From IMG/VR virus record IMGVR_UViG_3300025120_000177, positions 1 to 38,930 of that record: a DNA stretch of 38,930 bases; one strand, written 5' to 3'. The notes below the pieces were generated by a model. It saw only the letters and a list, made by a program, of their open reading frames with translations, had not been told where the DNA came from and did no database searches. The position numbers and the translations under genes are program-made. This DNA is from a virus. Its lineage: Duplodnaviria > Caudoviricetes. Shown piece by piece: positions 13,229-31,402 of this stretch (the first letter of the stretch is position 1; every line of letters starts with the position of its first letter).

Positions 13229-15754
13229 TTAGAACAAGTACATAACTCCACCTTTCTTAACGAACATAACAGATGCGCCGCCATGAAGAGTAATTGAACC
13301 GTCACCTTCGCCGTCAATAGACTCACCAGCACCAGCGTTGAAAGTTACAGAGTTTGAACCTTCAGCAACCTTAACCATGATGAAGTAATTTTCAGTCATA
13401 GATGGAACTGTAAATGCTTTTGGAGAAGAAGCGTTAACGATGTAATGAGTAGCAAGACCCATTGCAGCAGAAGCTTCTGTCAAGTAAGCAACTTCAACTT
13501 TACCAGCAAAGTGATCATCAAATTTACCTTCAATACGTCCTTCTTCGCCTTGAGCACGAGTAACTTCAGATGCCAAGTTAGCAGTCAAAGTGTTATCAGC
13601 AGCAATGCGAGCAGCTTCTTCGGCAGCAACAGCAGCAACCATATCGGTTTCGATAGCAGCAAAGTCAGCAGCAACTGCACCAGAAAGAGCAGTGATGCTA
13701 GATTGAAGACCGTTATCACCAGCGATTCTTGCAGCTTCTTCTGTAGAAACAGAAGCAGCCAAAACAGCTTCAGCAGCTAATGCACGCGCTTCTTCATCAT
13801 CGATAGCGTCTGAAAGAAGACCTTCTGCAGCCAATGCACGAGTTTCCTCAGCAGCAATAGCAGCGTCAGCGTCAGCTTCGTTACCATCAACATCAGATTG
13901 TAATGCAGCAATAGCATTAGTCAAAGATGTGTCAGCAGCGATTCTTGCAGCTTCTTCAGCAGTAACAGCAGCAGCTCTATCAGAAACTTCTTGAGCCAAT
14001 GCAGCATTGTTAGAAGCAACATAAGAACCAAAAGCAGTATCGTTTACAGTATCAACATCGTTGATCAAAGTTACGATTTCTGCGAATGAATCTTTATCAG
14101 CAGAAGAAGCAAGAAGGATAGCGTCAACTCTTGCAGTCTCAGCATCAATGTTCAATTGAAGTTGAGTATCAGCAGCTTTATATGCAGTGTCCAAAGCGCC
14201 TTCAGCAGATTGTGCACGAGCAATTTCAGCAGCCAAAGCAGAGTCGTTTGATGCTTCGTAAGATGAAAGATCAGATGCAACAGCAGCAATAGCAGCATCA
14301 GCATCAGCTTCATTTTGGTCTACATCAGCTTGAACACCAGCCAAAGCAGATTGAACGTCAGTTTCCATAGCTGCGAAATCAGCAGCTACAGCACCAGACA
14401 AAGAAGTGATAGATGCAGAAAGAACACCTTCAGCAGCAACAGCGCGAGTTTCCTCAGCAGCGATTGCAGCATCAGCATCAGCTTCATTTTGATCTACGTC
14501 AGCTTGAAGAGCAGCAATAGCAGCATCAGCATCAGCTTCGTTTTGATCTACATCAGCTTGGATAGCGTTACGAGCTTGCAAAGAAAGGTTAGCTTCAAAT
14601 GCATCAGCAGCCATTCTAGCAGATTCTTCAGCAGTGATTGCAGTTTGCAATGCAGCATCAGCAGCAGCACGAGAAGTAGCTTCAGCAGCTTCACGAGCAT
14701 CAGTGTACGCTTTAGCATCTAACAAGCCTTGAGCATCAGCAGCAGCACGGTCAAGAAGTTCTTGAGCCAAATCTGCAGCGATTGCTTGATCTTCAGCCAA
14801 ACGAGTAGCAGCTTCAGAGTTGATGTTAGTTTGCAAAGTAGCATCTGCAGCAGAACGAGCGTTTGCTTCTGCAGTGTCAGCAGCAGCGAACTCAGAACGG
14901 ATAGCAGCACGGTCAGATGTTGCAGCACCGTCAGCAGAAATACGAGCAGTTTCTTCGTTACCAATGTTAGCTTGAAGAACAGCTTCTGCAGAAAGAGCAC
15001 GAGACTCTTCAGCATCTACGTCAACACCACGATCAACGATCTCTTGGTCAATCTTGCCATCAAGAGTAACGATTTGAGAAAGGATAGAAGTATCAGCCAA
15101 CTGATAAGCGTCAGCGATTTCTTTCAAAGTGTCGAAATCAACATCAGCACCAGCCAAAACAGCATCCAAACGACCACGTTCAGTTGCGATTTCACCAGAA
15201 AGACCAGAATCTGCAGCGATACGTGCTGCTTCTTCTGCATCTAATGCAGCTTGCATGTCAGTTTCCATTGCTGAGAAGTCAGCAGCTACAGCGCCAGACA
15301 ATGCGTTGATGTTACCTTGAAGAGTAGCATCAGCACCTTGACGTGCAGTTGACTCAGAAGCCAAAGCAGCGTTGTTAGAGATAACGTAAGCGTCATGCTT
15401 ACCTTCGATACGACCTTCTTCACCGAGAGCACGAGTCTCTTCAGTAGAGATAGCAGCAGCATTTGCAGCTTCAGCACCTTGAGCGCGAGTGATTTCAGAA
15501 TCTAATCCACCTTGAAGACCGACACGACCTTGCTCAGCAGCAACTTCAACATCTTTTAAGTGTTTTTCTTGTACAAGTTTGTCACCACCAGCTTGTGGGG
15601 CGTTTGCGGTACCGACCTTAACAGCATCAGAAATTTCTGAAACGTTCTTTACGGCGCCAACTGGAAGGGTAAGTTTTCCTTCCGCCAATTCTGACATATC
15701 AAATTCAGTAACCTGATCGTCAACCTTGACTTTTCCTAAGAATAATTTAGCCAT
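13229..15754 (-). CDS. Long alanine-rich coiled-coil fibre protein with C-terminal beta domain
   Basis: Start reassigned to MAKLFLGKV (GGAGG RBS); recurrent EExARIAAD / ExRAxAAE units, fibre-type FDTLKEIAD motif, short C-terminal beta-rich domain. Confidence 0.7.
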   Translation of the reverse strand: MAKLFLGKVKVDDQVTEFDMSELAEGKLTLPVGAVKNVSEISDAVKVGTANAPQAGGDKLVQEKHLKDVEVAAEQGRVGLQGGLDSEITRAQGAEAANAAAISTEETRALGEEGRIEGKHDAYVISNNAALASESTARQGADATLQGNINALSGAVAADFSAMETDMQAALDAEEAARIAADSGLSGEIATERGRLDAVLAGADVDFDTLKEIADAYQLADTSILSQIVTLDGKIDQEIVDRGVDVDAEESRALSAEAVLQANIGNEETARISADGAATSDRAAIRSEFAAADTAEANARSAADATLQTNINSEAATRLAEDQAIAADLAQELLDRAAADAQGLLDAKAYTDAREAAEATSRAAADAALQTAITAEESARMAADAFEANLSLQARNAIQADVDQNEADADAAIAALQADVDQNEADADAAIAAEETRAVAAEGVLSASITSLSGAVAADFAAMETDVQSALAGVQADVDQNEADADAAIAAVASDLSSYEASNDSALAAEIARAQSAEGALDTAYKAADTQLQLNIDAETARVDAILLASSADKDSFAEIVTLINDVDTVNDTAFGSYVASNNAALAQEVSDRAAAVTAEEAARIAADTSLTNAIAALQSDVDGNEADADAAIAAEETRALAAEGLLSDAIDDEEARALAAEAVLAASVSTEEAARIAGDNGLQSSITALSGAVAADFAAIETDMVAAVAAEEAARIAADNTLTANLASEVTRAQGEEGRIEGKFDDHFAGKVEVAYLTEASAAMGLATHYIVNASSPKAFTVPSMTENYFIMVKVAEGSNSVTFNAGAGESIDGEGDGSITLHGGASVMFVKKGGVMYLF
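13850..14560 (-). repeat. Intragenic degenerate repeats encoding (A/S)DVD(Q/G)NEADADAAIAA, four copies
   Basis: Copies near 14515-14560, 14455-14505, 14285-14331 and 13850-13900; LSGAVAADF(S/A)A(M/I)ETD also occurs three times in the gene. Confidence 0.85.
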
Positions 15755-15938
15755 TATTATTTCCTCCAAATAATGATCATAAGACTCAAGACACACCGGT
15801 GCCTAGAGCTACCCTTAACTACACTCAATAATAACAAAAAGAATTTTTATTTTAACCAGTTTAGTATCTACGTTCTTAAACACTAAAAAAAAATAAAAAA
15901 AACTCTATAGCTTCGAAAAAATGGGAAGGATAGAGACT

Positions 15939-19615: not shown

Positions 19616-19623
19616 TAAATAGT
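19616..19623 (-). promoter_or_regulatory. Putative late promoter motif ACTATTTA
   Basis: Exact copy overlapping the bS21 stop codon, about 22 nt upstream of ATG at 19593. Confidence 0.65.
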
Positions 19624-19817
19624 TATTGCTTCTTCTTCTTGAGACGCGCTCTCCATTTTTTACGAGCAAGACGTTTTTTCTCCGAATCTGAAGTAAAATG
19701 TCTTTTGTCTCGGACTTCTTGCAGAATGCCAAGCTTTTTACACTTCTTTGTAAATCGTTTAATAAATTTTTCCATGCTCTCGTTTTTGCGAGGTCGCATT
19801 CTATAATTGGTAGCCAT
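19623..19817 (-). CDS. rpsU: Phage-encoded 30S ribosomal protein bS21
   Basis: 64 aa; NESMEKFIKRFTKKCKKLGILQEVRDKRHFTSDSEKKR matches the bS21 pattern E..E..L.RF.....K.G...E.R.R....... Confidence 0.9.
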   Translation of the reverse strand: MATNYRMRPRKNESMEKFIKRFTKKCKKLGILQEVRDKRHFTSDSEKKRLARKKWRARLKKKKQ

Positions 19818-24900: not shown

Positions 24901-26478
24901 TTATCCTTTGTAGATCCAAAAAAATTCTTTTGATTTTTTGATTTCCTCCTCATGTTTTTCTCTAAACGTTTCGTTATAGAATTTCTGACCTTTAATTTGT
25001 GTGTTCATGGTTGTGGTGCTTTTGAAAACACCTCCAAGCATCGCTTTCTTATATGCCATGTCTCGCTCGTTTTCTGCCAAGGCAGTGTCCCTAACCCAGC
25101 AAGCAATTGCCAAAGACATTACGAGATCATCATTGTAAGAGCGCATTGCTTGAGGCTTGCCATTGAACCAAATGAAAGTCTTCAATTCGTGAAAAACTCT
25201 AGCGGAGTGCATAGTAATTAGTTTGTTTCTGACGTACTCTTCCAATTTAGCCACAATTAAAGGTCTTGTTTTGGTAGATGTGGTAAAACCCATCACCGCT
25301 CTGTCGTCGTTCTCTGCTAAATAGGCTTCGACATATTCGTGAGTTGACTTGATAGAATAATAAAGTTTTTTATAGTTCATCTCTTTGAGTTTTTCCAAAA
25401 CAGCAATTCCGACTCCAACATTTTCCACCACCAACAGACATGTTCCATATTCTATCCCTGCATCATAGAGAATTCTAGAATACATATCCAGGTCTGGTTT
25501 GCCTTGATATTCCGCGACGACAGTCATTGTGTCTACTCGAATGACATGAAAGCAACTAAAGTCTGCACCATCTCCTCGTGCAACATCAGCTGATAAAAGA
25601 TAGGGAACACCTTCTTCAAACTTCTCCCAAATCCAGAAATTTCGATCATAGCCAGTTCGATATTGTGGATCGCGGACCTCAGCGTGGAGTCTTTGTAGAT
25701 CCTCAGGGTTAATTACTGTTTCTCCAGATGCATTAAAGGAACACTCCAACTCCTGAGCTATCTGTCGTTTGGACATGTTATTTGTCTCTTTGTCAAACCA
25801 TGCCTGGTCACGATCAGGGTGGACATCCCAATTTAATTTAGTGGGGAAGAAATCATTGTTTCCCACATCCGCTTCGGTGTAGGTTTTGTGAAACCAGTTT
25901 CCAACGCCGTTAGGGGTGCTTAGAGCGATGCAGCGGCCTCCTGTAGACAAAGTAGGGTAGAGACCCGTCCAAAGCTCGTCGAGGCCGTCAACGAAGGCTG
26001 CTTCGTCTATAATGAGCAATGACAATGCTTCCGAACGACCAGCGTCGCCTGATGTCGTCCCAGCTTTTACTTGAGATCCATTTGTCAATTCAAACGACTG
26101 TTTGTTGTCAGTCTGGATCTTTGCAATCAACATCCAAGACGGAAGATTCTTGAAGATCATTTTGACCTTCTTTACGAGGTTTGTTGCCGTGGATAGTTTG
26201 GTTGCGATAACGAGAACGTTCTTTTCTCGATGAAACAGCATGAACCATGCAACATAAGCAGCAGAGATCGTCGAGATCCCCAGCTGTCTTGCTTTTAATA
26301 TAACGTTAAAACGGTAGTCGTTAAAGTTTTGTAACATCTCCTTTTGGTAGTCATAAGTCTTGAACGGAATTTGACCATGCATCGGGTGAGAGATCTTACA
26401 ATAGTTGTCGATGAAGTATTGAGGATCTTTCCCACATCTCACAAGTTCTTTAACAATTTCACTCTTAGTGAGTTTCAT
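24901..26478 (-). CDS. Terminase large subunit (T4 gp17-like)
   Basis: 525 aa; KARQLGIST Walker A, LLIIDEAAF Walker B, STPNG coupling motif, nuclease SADVARG and DDLVMSLAIA. Confidence 0.96.
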   Translation of the reverse strand: MKLTKSEIVKELVRCGKDPQYFIDNYCKISHPMHGQIPFKTYDYQKEMLQNFNDYRFNVILKARQLGISTISAAYVAWFMLFHREKNVLVIATKLSTATNLVKKVKMIFKNLPSWMLIAKIQTDNKQSFELTNGSQVKAGTTSGDAGRSEALSLLIIDEAAFVDGLDELWTGLYPTLSTGGRCIALSTPNGVGNWFHKTYTEADVGNNDFFPTKLNWDVHPDRDQAWFDKETNNMSKRQIAQELECSFNASGETVINPEDLQRLHAEVRDPQYRTGYDRNFWIWEKFEEGVPYLLSADVARGDGADFSCFHVIRVDTMTVVAEYQGKPDLDMYSRILYDAGIEYGTCLLVVENVGVGIAVLEKLKEMNYKKLYYSIKSTHEYVEAYLAENDDRAVMGFTTSTKTRPLIVAKLEEYVRNKLITMHSARVFHELKTFIWFNGKPQAMRSYNDDLVMSLAIACWVRDTALAENERDMAYKKAMLGGVFKSTTTMNTQIKGQKFYNETFREKHEEEIKKSKEFFWIYKG

Positions 26479-26490
26479 TTACCCCTCAAT

Positions 26491-26982
26491 TCATTGTGAT
26501 TTCTTGCCGACTTGATTGGCAGCTAGTGCAATTGCCAAAGCGGCTACTACAGAACCAGCCATTGTTGCACCACCCATTCCTAAGGCGGTAAGTGCTGGAT
26601 CTATGTATGGCGCGAGCACATCCATCAGTTGCTTTCCTGCTTCTGAGTTTATGACCATGCTAGCAAGAATTGGTGATGACATCATCGTTGCTCCTGCAAC
26701 ACCAGCCCCTGCAACCTTGGCAGCGACGCTTCCGTCTTCCGGTCCATAAAGGCCTCCGCCATCGTCATATTGTTCATTCATTTGTTGTGCTTGGTTGAGA
26801 ACAGCTTGTAGTGCAGCAGCGACTTCTGGTTTGGCAGAGAGAGCGGCAAACACTGCATCAGCCTTTGGGCTGTTTAGCATCTCTTTCGCTTCCTCAGCAG
26901 ATTGCTCCGCTTGCTGTTCGAGCATTAGATGGTTGAGTTCTTCTTTGATGATTCGTTTGAGTTGGACGCTTGTAAGATTCAT
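26491..26982 (-). CDS. Protein with N-terminal LKRIIKEEL tag and C-terminal hydrophobic Gly/Ala-rich helices
   Basis: 163 aa; MNLTSVQLKRIIKEELNHLMLE; hydrophobic VAGAGVAGATMM and SVVAALAIALAA segments. Confidence 0.7.
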   Translation of the reverse strand: MNLTSVQLKRIIKEELNHLMLEQQAEQSAEEAKEMLNSPKADAVFAALSAKPEVAAALQAVLNQAQQMNEQYDDGGGLYGPEDGSVAAKVAGAGVAGATMMSSPILASMVINSEAGKQLMDVLAPYIDPALTALGMGGATMAGSVVAALAIALAANQVGKKSQ

Positions 26983-27167
26983 TTACTTAAATCCTTTATT
27001 AGAGCTCTCAATAACGGTAGTGCATCATTGGCAGACTTATATCTACCCGAGAGACTAATCAACAAGTTTTTGCATGCTTCTAGCATCTCAACATCTGATG
27101 ATGCTGAGGGTTCATTTTCTAACTCTTCTTTAATGATTTGCTTTAGTGTTTCTTTTGAAAGTTTCAC
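26979..27167 (-). CDS. Small protein with N-terminal MKLSKETLKQIIKEEL tag
   Basis: Start reassigned to GTG at 27167 (GAGGA RBS), which puts the shared motif exactly at the N-terminus; 62 aa. Confidence 0.7.
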   Translation of the reverse strand: MKLSKETLKQIIKEELENEPSASSDVEMLEACKNLLISLSGRYKSANDALPLLRALIKDLSK

Positions 27168-27171
27168 TTGC

Positions 27172-27243
27172 TTATTCCTCGCAACATTCACATGAGCAGC
27201 ATGGGCAACAATTCCCACAACATTTTTCTTCTAAATTATTCAT
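27172..27243 (-). CDS. 23-aa cysteine-rich micropeptide MNNLEEKCCGNCCPCCSCECCEE (metallothionein-like)
   Basis: Not in the ORF track. ATG overlaps the upstream TGA (ATGA), GGAG upstream, TAA 4 nt before the next start; 9 Cys in 23 aa. Confidence 0.75.
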   Translation of the reverse strand: MNNLEEKCCGNCCPCCSCECCEE

Positions 27244-27794
27244 TTTTTATTATCTCCAGTTTTGATGTATTCATTTTGAGGTCGCTTTGCTTTCGCCGCC
27301 TTCAAAAAGTTTTTTGTAATATCTCTGACAGTATCTTCGGAAGGTGCAAGGATTTCGTCCATTTGTAGGCCGCCAATCTTATAGTGTTGATAGGCTTGAA
27401 CAAAAGTTCGAACGTTCGAAACTGACTGGACAATAACTTGTGGCTCACCTTTAGCAGTCAAAGAAACAGAGTTCCCAGTAATTGCTTTATATTCTTTTTG
27501 TAAAAATTTCTTTACTTCATTGATGGTGCGAGTGATCTCGTTCTCAAATCCGTTTTCTTTAAGGTCACACATTCTAACATCAGACTGATAGTTGATAACC
27601 ATTGAGTCTCCGTAGAACTTAACCTTGAAGCCATCGATTACTCGTTTGTCGAGCAAAGGGATGCCTTGTTCTCGCATAAGCCCAGTCTTGCGTGCCTTAC
27701 CATCATGTGAGTAGTTTTCTATGTGAGCGCCATCATAAGCATTCGACGCGGCTTGAGCTAACCCTTGGACAATTTCTAAAATTTCTTTGCTCAT
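27240..27794 (-). CDS. Hypothetical protein
   Basis: 184 aa; AGGAGA RBS; coupled to both neighbours by ATGA overlaps. Confidence 0.7.
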   Translation of the reverse strand: MSKEILEIVQGLAQAASNAYDGAHIENYSHDGKARKTGLMREQGIPLLDKRVIDGFKVKFYGDSMVINYQSDVRMCDLKENGFENEITRTINEVKKFLQKEYKAITGNSVSLTAKGEPQVIVQSVSNVRTFVQAYQHYKIGGLQMDEILAPSEDTVRDITKNFLKAAKAKRPQNEYIKTGDNKK

Positions 27795-28096
27795 ATTGCT
27801 CTCCTTGCTTCAAATTTCTCAACAAGCTCTCGTGCCATCCCGTCGACGTCTTCCAATCTTGCAGAGACAACTTCATTAGACATTTTCATGAAATCGGAAT
27901 CATCACCATTATCTGTTAATTGTCTGAGTGTTGTGCCCATCATCTCCATTGCTCTATCTCCGACTTGGTCCATGATGCGAAACAATCCATCATTGGGATC
28001 GGTTTGATCTACGGATAGATCGGGAGAGATTTCAGTATATGCTTCGTCCAACTCTTCTTTAATAATTCTTTTTAATGTTTGTTTTGTAAGTTTCAT
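27791..28096 (-). CDS. Small acidic protein with N-terminal MKLTKQTLKRIIKEEL tag
   Basis: Start reassigned to ATG at 28096 (GGAGA RBS, ATGA overlap with upstream stop). Confidence 0.75.
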   Translation of the reverse strand: MKLTKQTLKRIIKEELDEAYTEISPDLSVDQTDPNDGLFRIMDQVGDRAMEMMGTTLRQLTDNGDDSDFMKMSNEVVSARLEDVDGMARELVEKFEARRAI

Positions 28097-28461
28097 TTGT
28101 TTGGTCTCCAACCTGAATTCCATCTTTCTTCTCGACCTTCTACCCACTGGATATAGCACTTAAAACAACAATCAAATTTCGTCATATAAAGATCATCGAC
28201 AGATTTGAATGAATAAGTGTTACATGTTGGACATGAACGTTCCGATTCTCTATTAAGTAGTTCTTTTGAGATTAAAACCCCATCTAGATCTTCTTTCTCG
28301 CTCTCTGCTTTATCGTGTCGATAGTTCGACTTGAGTTCTTCAAGGTACTGTTTTTCTTTGTCGTCATCCCATTGTGACTTGGGGTTCACAACAGCTTCTT
28401 TACCATACTTCTCGGCTATTGCTTTTTCAACCTTTACGGCATAATTTGGATCTTTACTCAT
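28093..28461 (-). CDS. Hypothetical zinc-finger protein
   Basis: 122 aa; CPTC...CCFKC four-Cys ribbon. Confidence 0.7.
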   Translation of the reverse strand: MSKDPNYAVKVEKAIAEKYGKEAVVNPKSQWDDDKEKQYLEELKSNYRHDKAESEKEDLDGVLISKELLNRESERSCPTCNTYSFKSVDDLYMTKFDCCFKCYIQWVEGREERWNSGWRPNK

Positions 28462-28868
28462 TGAACACTCACATCTATTTTATTGGCAGCATAGTAAGTC
28501 AAAAGCGATGCGGATGTTCCAAGAACAAAGCCTCCGAAGAACACCCAAGATTGTCTTTTGGTGTTTGAGGATCTTCTAAGAATCTCAATTTCTTCATCTT
28601 TGATCGCGATCATTGCATCGTATTTTGTTTGCAAAGCTGTCTTTTCTATCTCTAAATAGTCAATTTGGTGCTGTTTTTCCGCAAGTTGAAGTGAAAAATC
28701 TAGAGCAGAGTTGATTGTGCACTGCTCTTCTGTGAACTCTTTCATTGTTATTATTGACACAACCGCTTCATCATTGAATAGCCTACCAGCAAAAGGTGCT
28801 GGCTCTCCTTCAACCAAAGGAGTCATAAGCGGCTCAGCAATTGACAATGCAGTGAGAAGCCAAATCAC
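28458..28868 (-). CDS. Secreted/membrane-anchored coiled-coil protein (possible spanin-like lysis component)
   Basis: 136 aa, GTG start; hydrophobic N-terminus, coiled coil, C-terminal TM segment WVFFGGFVLGTSASLLTYYAA. Confidence 0.5.
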   Translation of the reverse strand: MIWLLTALSIAEPLMTPLVEGEPAPFAGRLFNDEAVVSIITMKEFTEEQCTINSALDFSLQLAEKQHQIDYLEIEKTALQTKYDAMIAIKDEEIEILRRSSNTKRQSWVFFGGFVLGTSASLLTYYAANKIDVSVQ

Positions 28869-30830: not shown

Positions 30831-31211
30831 TTAGTTTTCCTTTGTTAACTTGGCAACATTGAGTTCTTCAAGTAAAATTTTATCTATCGCATCTGGATCT
30901 TCTTTTGCTAATTCCAAGAGCTCCAGCTTTCTATTTAAAGTTTCTCTTTCGAGTTCAGACTTTGCAGTCCGATGCTTCTTTCTTAGTGCAATTCTAGAAC
31001 TGACATATTTCTGATGTGCTTTTGCTAATCTTAATTTTTCCTCAGCCGAGATTTCTTCAATGACTTTAATTTCTTTATCTTTGGCCTCTGCAGAAGCCTC
31101 GGCAACCTTAACCTGTAATTTGTTACTTTTTCGCCCTAATACAAAAACTGTTAGCACGACAAGCGCGGAAGCAATAATTTCCCACTTATCTTTAATCCAA
31201 TTCAACATCAT
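30831..31211 (-). CDS. Membrane-anchored coiled-coil protein (possible inner-membrane spanin)
   Basis: Start reassigned to ATG 31211 (overlaps upstream stop); one N-terminal TM (IIASALVVLTVFVLG) then charged coiled coil. Confidence 0.5.
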   Translation of the reverse strand: MMLNWIKDKWEIIASALVVLTVFVLGRKSNKLQVKVAEASAEAKDKEIKVIEEISAEEKLRLAKAHQKYVSSRIALRKKHRTAKSELERETLNRKLELLELAKEDPDAIDKILLEELNVAKLTKEN

Positions 31212-31402
31212 CCGTTTCTCCAAGTTTTAGCAAAATCAATAGCGGTTTGACCGCCGATATAAGTTACAGCAATCATGCCCCATGTATCAGAACTTAAGTC
31301 TGAGAAATACATTAAAGCAGTTGCAACACCGAATACTAAAAGCTTACGAGAGATAAGTTTCTCTTGAACAGCATCGAGCATTCCTTTGTCTTCGTTTTCC
31401 AT
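31208..31402 (-). CDS. Small two-TM protein, candidate holin
   Basis: Start reassigned to MENEDKG (GGAGGA RBS); SRKLLVFGVATALMYF and WGMIAVTYIGGQTAID segments; first gene after a late motif. Confidence 0.55.
   Translation of the reverse strand: MENEDKGMLDAVQEKLISRKLLVFGVATALMYFSDLSSDTWGMIAVTYIGGQTAIDFAKTWRNG

Follow-up and report, generated by a model that had tools for sequence, protein, structure and literature searches.

Gene cluster surrounding the mini-gene

The DNA analyzed here (the window) is a whole virus record of 38,930 bases, in which nearly all long open reading frames (ORFs) lie on the minus strand. Matches to PHROGs were obtained for a T4-like major head protein, head protease, portal, and large terminase, and also for ribosomal protein S21, an SbcCD-like nuclease, and a primase. 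The terminase shares approximately 45% identity with those of the nearest isolated phages, and three relatives rated 100% complete range from 184 to 192 kb. Some contigs matching the peptide pattern described below bear TARA names, which points to a seawater origin. G001, a complete relative that carries the mini-gene, encodes DnaE, GroEL, ClpP, ClpS, UvdE, a B12-type ribonucleotide reductase, and a glutaredoxin. The same genome (loci L279 to L284) contains a large block of nucleotide-sugar, methyl-, and glycosyltransferase genes and also encodes a fatty acid hydroxylase and Ig-like domain proteins. Elsewhere in the window, an 855-amino-acid (aa) ORF (13229 to 15796, minus strand) without a PHROGs or Pfam match is located between the head gene block and two laminin-G-domain proteins. 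The S21 gene (19623 to 19817, minus strand) shares its strand with the head genes and comes three genes after that of the head protease, whereas for freshwater clades the accessible part of PMC9723584 gives bS21 in a reverse-strand arrangement.

All genes of the cluster considered here are on the minus strand. A 64-aa two-helix membrane protein (31208 to 31402), holin-like by size and position only and without a Cys tail, is encoded 3,964 nt upstream of the mini-gene. It is accompanied by a 126-aa protein with an N-terminal membrane anchor (30831 to 31211), weakly spanin-like (Rz-like spanin, E = 0.38; E = 0.0038 for its counterpart in locus L073), and by a 136-aa protein with hydrophobic ends (28458 to 28868), which is the third member of the membrane-gene trio in most relatives. 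Two genes upstream of the mini-gene, a conserved 122-aa protein (28093 to 28461) contains the motifs CxxC and CCxxC, which probably form a zinc site. The gene immediately upstream (27240 to 27794) encodes a conserved 184-aa protein with 327 relatives in viral contigs. Its AlphaFold model has a pLDDT of 60, the best Foldseek hit in the PDB was not significant (E = 0.037), and a search of the ESM Atlas returned only unnamed viral clusters; nonsignificant fold matches to neck and tail-terminator proteins recurred.

Downstream of the mini-gene are a 62-aa gene (26979 to 27167), whose true start is the GTG at 27167 and which gene callers extend to 27218, a 163-aa gene (26491 to 26982), and the large terminase gene (24901 to 26478; PHROGs E = 1.7e-54). 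Both the 62-aa and the 163-aa products begin with a 16-residue leader ending in IIKEEL that is common to unrelated ORFs of the window starting at 28096, 27167, 26982, and 23012. In addition to these four ORFs, 185 distinct N termini in related loci carry the leader, which resembles the T4 capsid targeting sequence.

Sequence and translation signals of the mini-gene

Between the 184-aa and 62-aa genes, positions 27243 to 27172 of the minus strand hold a 23-codon ORF with the translation MNNLEEKCCGNCCPCCSCECCEE followed by a stop codon; the plus strand of 27172 to 27243 has no such ORF. The position behind the 184-aa gene, a variable slot before the terminase gene, is referred to as slot A. Nine of the final 16 residues are Cys, arranged as four CC pairs plus one single Cys, just as described in the first-pass annotation, which had left the strand unstated. 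The predicted peptide is 39% Cys, and the window-wide Cys content is 0.61% of 10,402 residues (22 window ORFs). One short ORF with at least nine Cys in 16 codons was found in the window and none in 200 dinucleotide shuffles.

The ATG overlaps the TGA of the upstream 184-aa gene (ATGA), and a GGAG ribosome-binding site (27254 to 27257, minus strand) is located 10 nt before the ATG, inside that gene. At the other end, the last two Glu codons supply a GAGGA (27176 to 27180, minus strand) 8 nt before the GTG at 27167, which serves as the ribosome site of the next gene; in homologs ending in Gly-Glu, this site is GGAGA. The coupling and both ribosome sites had been noted at first pass and were all confirmed in the sequence. 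The GGAG and the ATGA are also present in most relatives that lack the mini-peptide, and thus both signals belong to the slot. Similarly, the terminal Glu-Glu or Gly-Glu codons also form the ribosome site of the next gene and may be conserved on that account and not because of the peptide.

The ORF had been described as unannotated, and the mini-peptide is indeed absent from approximately 15 billion called proteins. The product of the next gene is among them in a 79-aa form that runs through the mini-gene DNA in another frame. The extension frame has a pN/pS of 1.5 and is closed in locus L002. Standard annotation therefore hides the mini-gene by stretching the next gene over it.

Conservation, selection, and gain or loss

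Using the upstream 184-aa protein as bait, the loci of the best 80 of its 327 relatives were examined without reference to the peptide. Slot A held the mini-gene in 13 loci, a leader-type gene directly in 50, and the terminase gene directly in 17. The 13 copies have the same length (23 codons), nine or eight Cys, the same ATGA overlap, and the same stop. For the pN/pS analysis, nine distinct copies identified by synteny alone were used, including that of the window and excluding duplicates and the divergent L034. The mini-gene had a pS of 0.674 and a pN of 0.078, giving a ratio of 0.116, compared with 0.311 for the final 100 codons of the upstream 184-aa gene. Both TGT and TGC occur in eight of the nine Cys columns, and a single Cys-to-Ser change was seen among these copies. 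Copies added by pattern scans are biased toward Cys and were left out of the headline ratio; the pooled ratio including them is 0.165. The first-pass annotation had proposed looking for a syntenic ORF before the terminase gene with conserved Cys and synonymous variation, and such an ORF was found at these 13 of 80 loci. The mini-gene is selected as a protein.

Start, length, and stop are kept over 28 distinct coding sequences, and Gly, Pro, and His residues as well as the exact Cys spacing are conserved among the homologs. All 27 metagenome matches to a stop-free core pattern, one of which is the window's own record, were free ORFs of 22 to 23 aa. A looser Cys-codon pattern applied to viral contigs retrieved approximately 3,000 stretches, mostly TGC/TGT repeats read off-frame, and was rejected; these scored at most 40 bits, compared with 58 to 76 for true members. 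The 23-codon ORF is almost certainly a real gene on these sequence criteria.

On a tree of 72 upstream proteins, 12 of them from carriers, the distribution of the mini-gene required seven gains or losses, compared with 11.4 when labels were shuffled, and at least four of the seven are forced by well-supported branches. The mini-gene is thus accessory and has been repeatedly gained or lost, as a whole unit. Eight of the 12 carriers have long end branches on this tree (0.10 to 0.21, compared with a median of 0.042); the remaining carriers group together on a single branch of 0.14. This may reflect recombination around slot A; window-wise identity along the carriers' 184-aa gene showed no clear break.

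Peptide family and its two slots

In total, 23 distinct free peptides of 20 to 23 aa were identified, and these occupy two slots of one late gene cluster. The second, slot B, lies a few genes upstream of slot A, behind the small membrane-protein gene that follows an SbcCD-like gene. The first-pass annotation had placed the ORF in a head-assembly operon. This agrees with the variable slot before the terminase gene and not with the family as a whole, which elsewhere sits directly behind the holin-like gene.

The family core is CC-x2-CC-x-CC-x-C, followed by x-CC or x2-C. Cys content is 35 to 45% in all 23 peptides, none contains Phe, Trp, or Tyr, and net charge ranges from 0 to −5. Fourteen peptides have nine Cys, eight have eight Cys plus one His, and one has eight Cys only, such that Cys and His sum to nine in 22 of 23. 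All eight peptides with eight Cys plus a His are in slot B, with the His two places before the first CC; it is kept in 10 of 10 coding sequences, while neighboring residues vary. Of 16 loci with the slot-B membrane gene, seven have a Cys mini-gene, three from this family and four from another, described at the end of this report.

Fused tails on the small membrane protein

In two of 71 distinct homologs, the membrane protein itself begins with a nine-Cys acidic tail (L073, 1858 to 2133; L077, 2145 to 2411). The membrane part of the fused form shares 55% identity over 56 residues with the window's 64-aa protein, to which it is clearly homologous. None of the closest 120 homologs of the window's protein has three or more Cys. 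A query with the fused protein of L077 retrieved 319 proteins, and 87 of the best 120 have tails of at least six Cys, a set biased toward tails by that query. These tails (best 120 of 319) span zero to 11 Cys and zero to five His and are mostly acidic; Cys and His mostly sum to 8 to 11, so that nine ligands are not kept. An aromatic residue was found in two of 81 distinct tails. Across the membrane family, an N-terminal Cys stretch occurs in only five of 147 representatives at 50% identity. The N terminus of the small membrane protein (L073, L077, and P0207 to P0326) is exchanged between nothing, a helical acidic piece, and a Cys/His tail with 1 to 11 Cys.

Several tails (e.g., P0213 and P0257) start much like slot-B peptides. 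When scored with a profile of the free peptides, 27 of the 81 distinct tails beat 95% of full shuffles (approximately four expected). With Cys fixed in the shuffles, 12 of 81 did so (approximately four expected), with a median z of 0.24. Given that only these 12 pass with Cys fixed and that the tails are kin, the case for ancestry is mostly one of Cys spacing and similar starts, and common ancestry of free peptide and fused tail is somewhat favored.

No locus contained both forms: 21 combine a free peptide with a membrane protein that lacks the tail, and two have a tail and no free peptide, too few tail loci for mutual exclusion to be called. Where both slots are visible, 34 of 47 loci have neither form, and the module is thus dispensable. 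The membrane protein has two predicted helices and heads a trio that includes the spanin-like gene. Its best match to a holin profile is at an E value of 0.19, and none of 110 distant homologs matched PHROGs at 1e-4. The fused protein, modeled by AlphaFold with a pLDDT of 58 (below 50 in the tail), gave no significant fold match.

Low-complexity tails rich in His or Cys that bind metals are known from SlyD, HypB, and metal transporters, and interchange of Cys, His, Asp, and Glu, as in the fused tails, is the look of a loose metal-binding tail. Like those of SlyD and HypB, the fused form is an acidic Cys/His tail of variable length on another protein. Unlike them, it sits on a tiny membrane protein of a phage, encoded within a lysis-like trio, and also exists as a free gene.

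Relation to described proteins

The window peptide had no Pfam match at an E value of 0.1 and no PHROGs, NCBIfam, or PDB sequence match, and seven of its relatives had no metallothionein match in Pfam at an E value of 10. A tblastn search of 50,697 phage records returned nothing for either the peptide or the fused protein, a result weakened by the low-complexity filter. The family pattern was also searched for in 185,579 bacterial and archaeal genomes; the sole match was an off-frame chance match inside a prophage gene and was discarded. In the literature, no description of the family was found: the accessible parts of PMC11191002 and PMC8240259 contain nothing on it, and the small-protein catalogs PMC11364881 and PMC12856327, as well as a 2022 catalog of small phage genes, may list the sequence without a function. 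As far as sequence can tell, the mini-gene is a real gene of an undescribed family in uncultured T4-like phages.

A virus-borne metallothionein is not unheard of, since metallothioneins are named among viral auxiliary genes in the available portions of PMC13317609 and PMC12917443. Those cases, so far as these portions go, rest on database annotation, which the mini-gene family escapes. The main text of PMC8240259, which is cited by PMC12917443, does not contain the word metallothionein.

A proposed metallothionein-like peptide made late

The size, Cys motifs, and lack of aromatic residues of the predicted peptide match the metallothionein class. The smallest fungal metallothioneins are approximately 25 aa, and those of mammals are Lys-rich. 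Like the class, the mini-peptide is very short and Cys-rich, with CC and CxC motifs, no aromatics, and nine ligands in most members. It differs from the class in being 20 to 23 aa long, acidic, phage-encoded, and part of a late cluster, with no metal regulator seen. The odd Cys numbers and the trade of His for Cys, which represents one or two evolutionary events only, fit metal ligands and not disulfides. That the mini-peptide binds metal is considered probable from this composition. Its function as a free metal-thiolate buffer, metallothionein-like and made late, is our first reading, to which we give about an even chance.

Under the buffer reading, ribosomes ending the 184-aa gene would restart at the overlapping ATG, and the peptide would be produced along with the late cluster, independently of metal; its coupling into this cluster suggests late, uninduced expression. 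Six RNA runs matched 5 to 7% of the sequence words, and in four of them no contig spanned the ORF, an outcome that bears neither way on expression. In a reducing cytoplasm, the nine thiolates would coordinate approximately three divalent ions or, alternatively, several Cu(I). Hardly any side chains of the peptide could sustain an independent fold, and it would fold around zinc, cadmium, or copper ions through its Cys. Any benefit would be conditional, with the peptide taking up surplus Cu, Zn, Cd, or oxidants while virions are assembled; alternatively, it may hold Zn for late phage proteins. The free mini-gene likely arose by detachment of the Cys/His-rich tail from the membrane protein of the same cluster. 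The first-pass proposal of a metallothionein-like chelator expressed late is supported to the extent that the gene is real, selected, and translationally coupled and that its make-up fits a metal-thiolate peptide.

Known metallothioneins offer parallels for such a site. In the accessible text of PMC3323870, metallothioneins are described as folding around metal clusters, with His often a ligand. The beta domain of human MT3, with nine Cys, forms Zn3Cys9 or Cd3Cys9 or binds 4, 6, or 10 Cu(I); a Yarrowia metallothionein forms Cu4Cys8-9, and the Cu-thioneins of Neurospora and Agaricus have seven Cys (accessible part of PMC13107397). A fixed three-metal cluster is not established for the mini-peptide, as the fused tails lack a constant nine ligands.

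The likeness to the bacterial proteins SmtA and BmtA is that the gene is small and easily missed by annotation and that His can be a ligand (PMC3323870, in part). The zinc-finger fold of BmtA, its conserved nonligand residues, including a Tyr, and its much greater length, as given in that source, have no counterpart in the mini-peptide, which matches no profile, has no aromatic residue, and falls outside the BmtA family. SmtA is controlled by SmtB, for which the mini-gene has no counterpart, and thus responds to metal, which a gene locked in a late cluster cannot do (same source). A Pfam scan of 118 G001 proteins (of 168 listed) returned no metal-homeostasis family, and no metal sensor family was found in these proteins or in 41 window ORFs.

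If the mini-peptide binds metal as predicted, it would be a virus-made metallothionein shorter than those known to us, and the natural series of forms (nine Cys, eight Cys plus His, free, and fused) would allow the minimal size of a metal-thiolate cluster to be tested. Large seawater phages would then handle Zn or Cu through genes hidden by standard annotation. The weight of this is limited by the function being inferred from composition and by most relatives being without the mini-gene.

Alternative functions

Compared with the free buffer, the main rival is action on the membrane protein, the peptide being a split-off cytoplasmic domain of a holin-like protein that still acts on it in trans, with metal or thiol state governing membrane permeabilization or lysis timing. 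The peptide or tail is found fused to the membrane protein, adjacent to its gene, or distant from it. The membrane protein is tail-less at each of the 21 loci where its gene is visible alongside a free peptide, both tail loci are without a free peptide, and the membrane gene heads the trio with the spanin-like gene. These patterns must be set against the fact that just two loci bear a tail, versus 34 with neither form. In addition, 1.7 to 4.0 kb separate the peptide from the membrane gene in the window and in relatives with a slot-A copy, the two are never side by side at 45 loci from closer relatives of the window, and the holin label is weak on the profile, PHROGs, and fold results given above. 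We regard this reading as unlikely. A modular metal or thiol sensor of lysis, in which a Cys/His domain, fused or free, would set the trigger of the membrane protein according to its metal loading, is also rather unlikely; no literature was found that treats holins, zinc, a Cys-rich protein, and lysis timing together. The fused form suggests a so far unexplored connection of metals with a lysis-like cassette. Were the sensor reading true, host trace-metal state would for the first time be linked to the timing of phage lysis, and no metal-cluster protein made on ribosomes would be known that is shorter than the free form.

Other thiol chemistry, with the peptide as an Fe-S carrier, a sulfur store, the redox couple of a glutaredoxin, or the precursor of a modified peptide, appears quite unlikely. 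CC-rich acidic peptides could hold Fe-S, and G001 does encode a glutaredoxin; a third slot-B family, with a helix-like N terminus and a run of five Cys, also looks like a leader plus core. A modified peptide or Fe-S cluster is disfavored by the gene content: complete genomes G001 to G003 encode no protein of more than 150 aa with the radical-SAM motif CxxxCxxC, the 118 G001 proteins scanned include no modifying-enzyme or Fe-S assembly family, and the window encodes no RiPP-modifying enzymes.

The first-pass annotation had also read the N-terminal LEE as a head-protease site that would release the peptide into the head. In the full form of this idea, the peptide would enter the prohead, be cleaved behind LEE, and pass into the next host; in a variant, it would cross-link the particle by disulfides after lysis. 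The consensus of the T4 head-protease site is [LI]xE, which is found as [LIV]xE in only 14 of the 23 peptides, and the leader is absent from all 23; the LEE proposal was not upheld. Nine Cys cannot all pair, which argues against the disulfide variant. Both slots are shared with leader-bearing genes, one of which usually follows the peptide, and T4-like phages vary such internal proteins freely (PMC9026906, accessible part). The neighbors of the mini-gene resemble T4 internal proteins in carrying an analogous leader and varying between strains, whereas the mini-peptide differs from those with a capsid targeting sequence in having no leader. The same text cites LIE as the T4 protease motif and gives approximately 10 N-terminal residues as needed for targeting, compared with the five to seven that precede the first Cys here. 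A virion passenger is therefore distinctly unlikely.

It is very improbable that the ORF serves as a Cys-sensing spacer or attenuator, in which ribosome speed over the Cys codons tunes the downstream genes and the peptide is a by-product. The mini-gene runs into the next ribosome site, with which its Cys codons pair in a weak consensus hairpin; one pair of this hairpin shows three double changes among 11 sequences. The consensus energy is just −2.7 kcal/mol over the same 11 sequences, and the window RNA folds worse than shuffles (z = +1.34). Poly-Cys ORFs do act in this way in mycobacteria (accessible part of bioRxiv 10.1101/834739), and the mini-gene is like them in being short and Cys-dense, with an end that meets the next ribosome site. 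The mycobacterial ORFs are first in their transcripts, often leaderless, and form very stable duplexes, according to that source. The mini-gene, unlike them, lies mid-cluster with its own GGAG and no stable duplex, and the 300 nt before it contain no promoter-like site. Its downstream genes vary (terminase, leader-type, or spanin-like gene), and none is related to sulfur or Cys. The conservation of Gly, Pro, His, and exact Cys spacing also argues against this role, in which a fused protein tail could not act.

The remaining possibility, a chance ORF or a longer N terminus of the next gene read in another frame, has in its favor that gene callers pick the extension; it is extremely improbable, being already refuted by the substitution pattern (pN/pS of 1.5 in the extension frame versus 0.116) and opposed by the constancy of start, length, and stop and by gain and loss of the cassette as a unit.

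Other Cys-rich mini-genes

The other mini-gene family of slot B consists of peptides of 31 to 39 aa with 10 to 12 Cys, a helix-like N terminus, and often five Cys in a row; those in the four slot-B loci measure 33 to 39 aa. Members were identified at L256 (3245 to 3364), L276 (2501 to 2602), L267, L268, L272, and L274, and the family also occurs in two other contexts. It had no match in Pfam, NCBIfam, or the ESM Atlas, the last queried with a 33-aa relative. A further Cys module, CPxCxCxPCDC, was found in 11 viral stretches at other places in these and further phages, either within short ORFs or at the ends of ORFs, with sites at L284 (4247 to 4324, in G001), L295, and L308 to L318. Of these, the sequence at L314 begins much like the window peptide, and the divergent slot-A copy at L034 looks intermediate.
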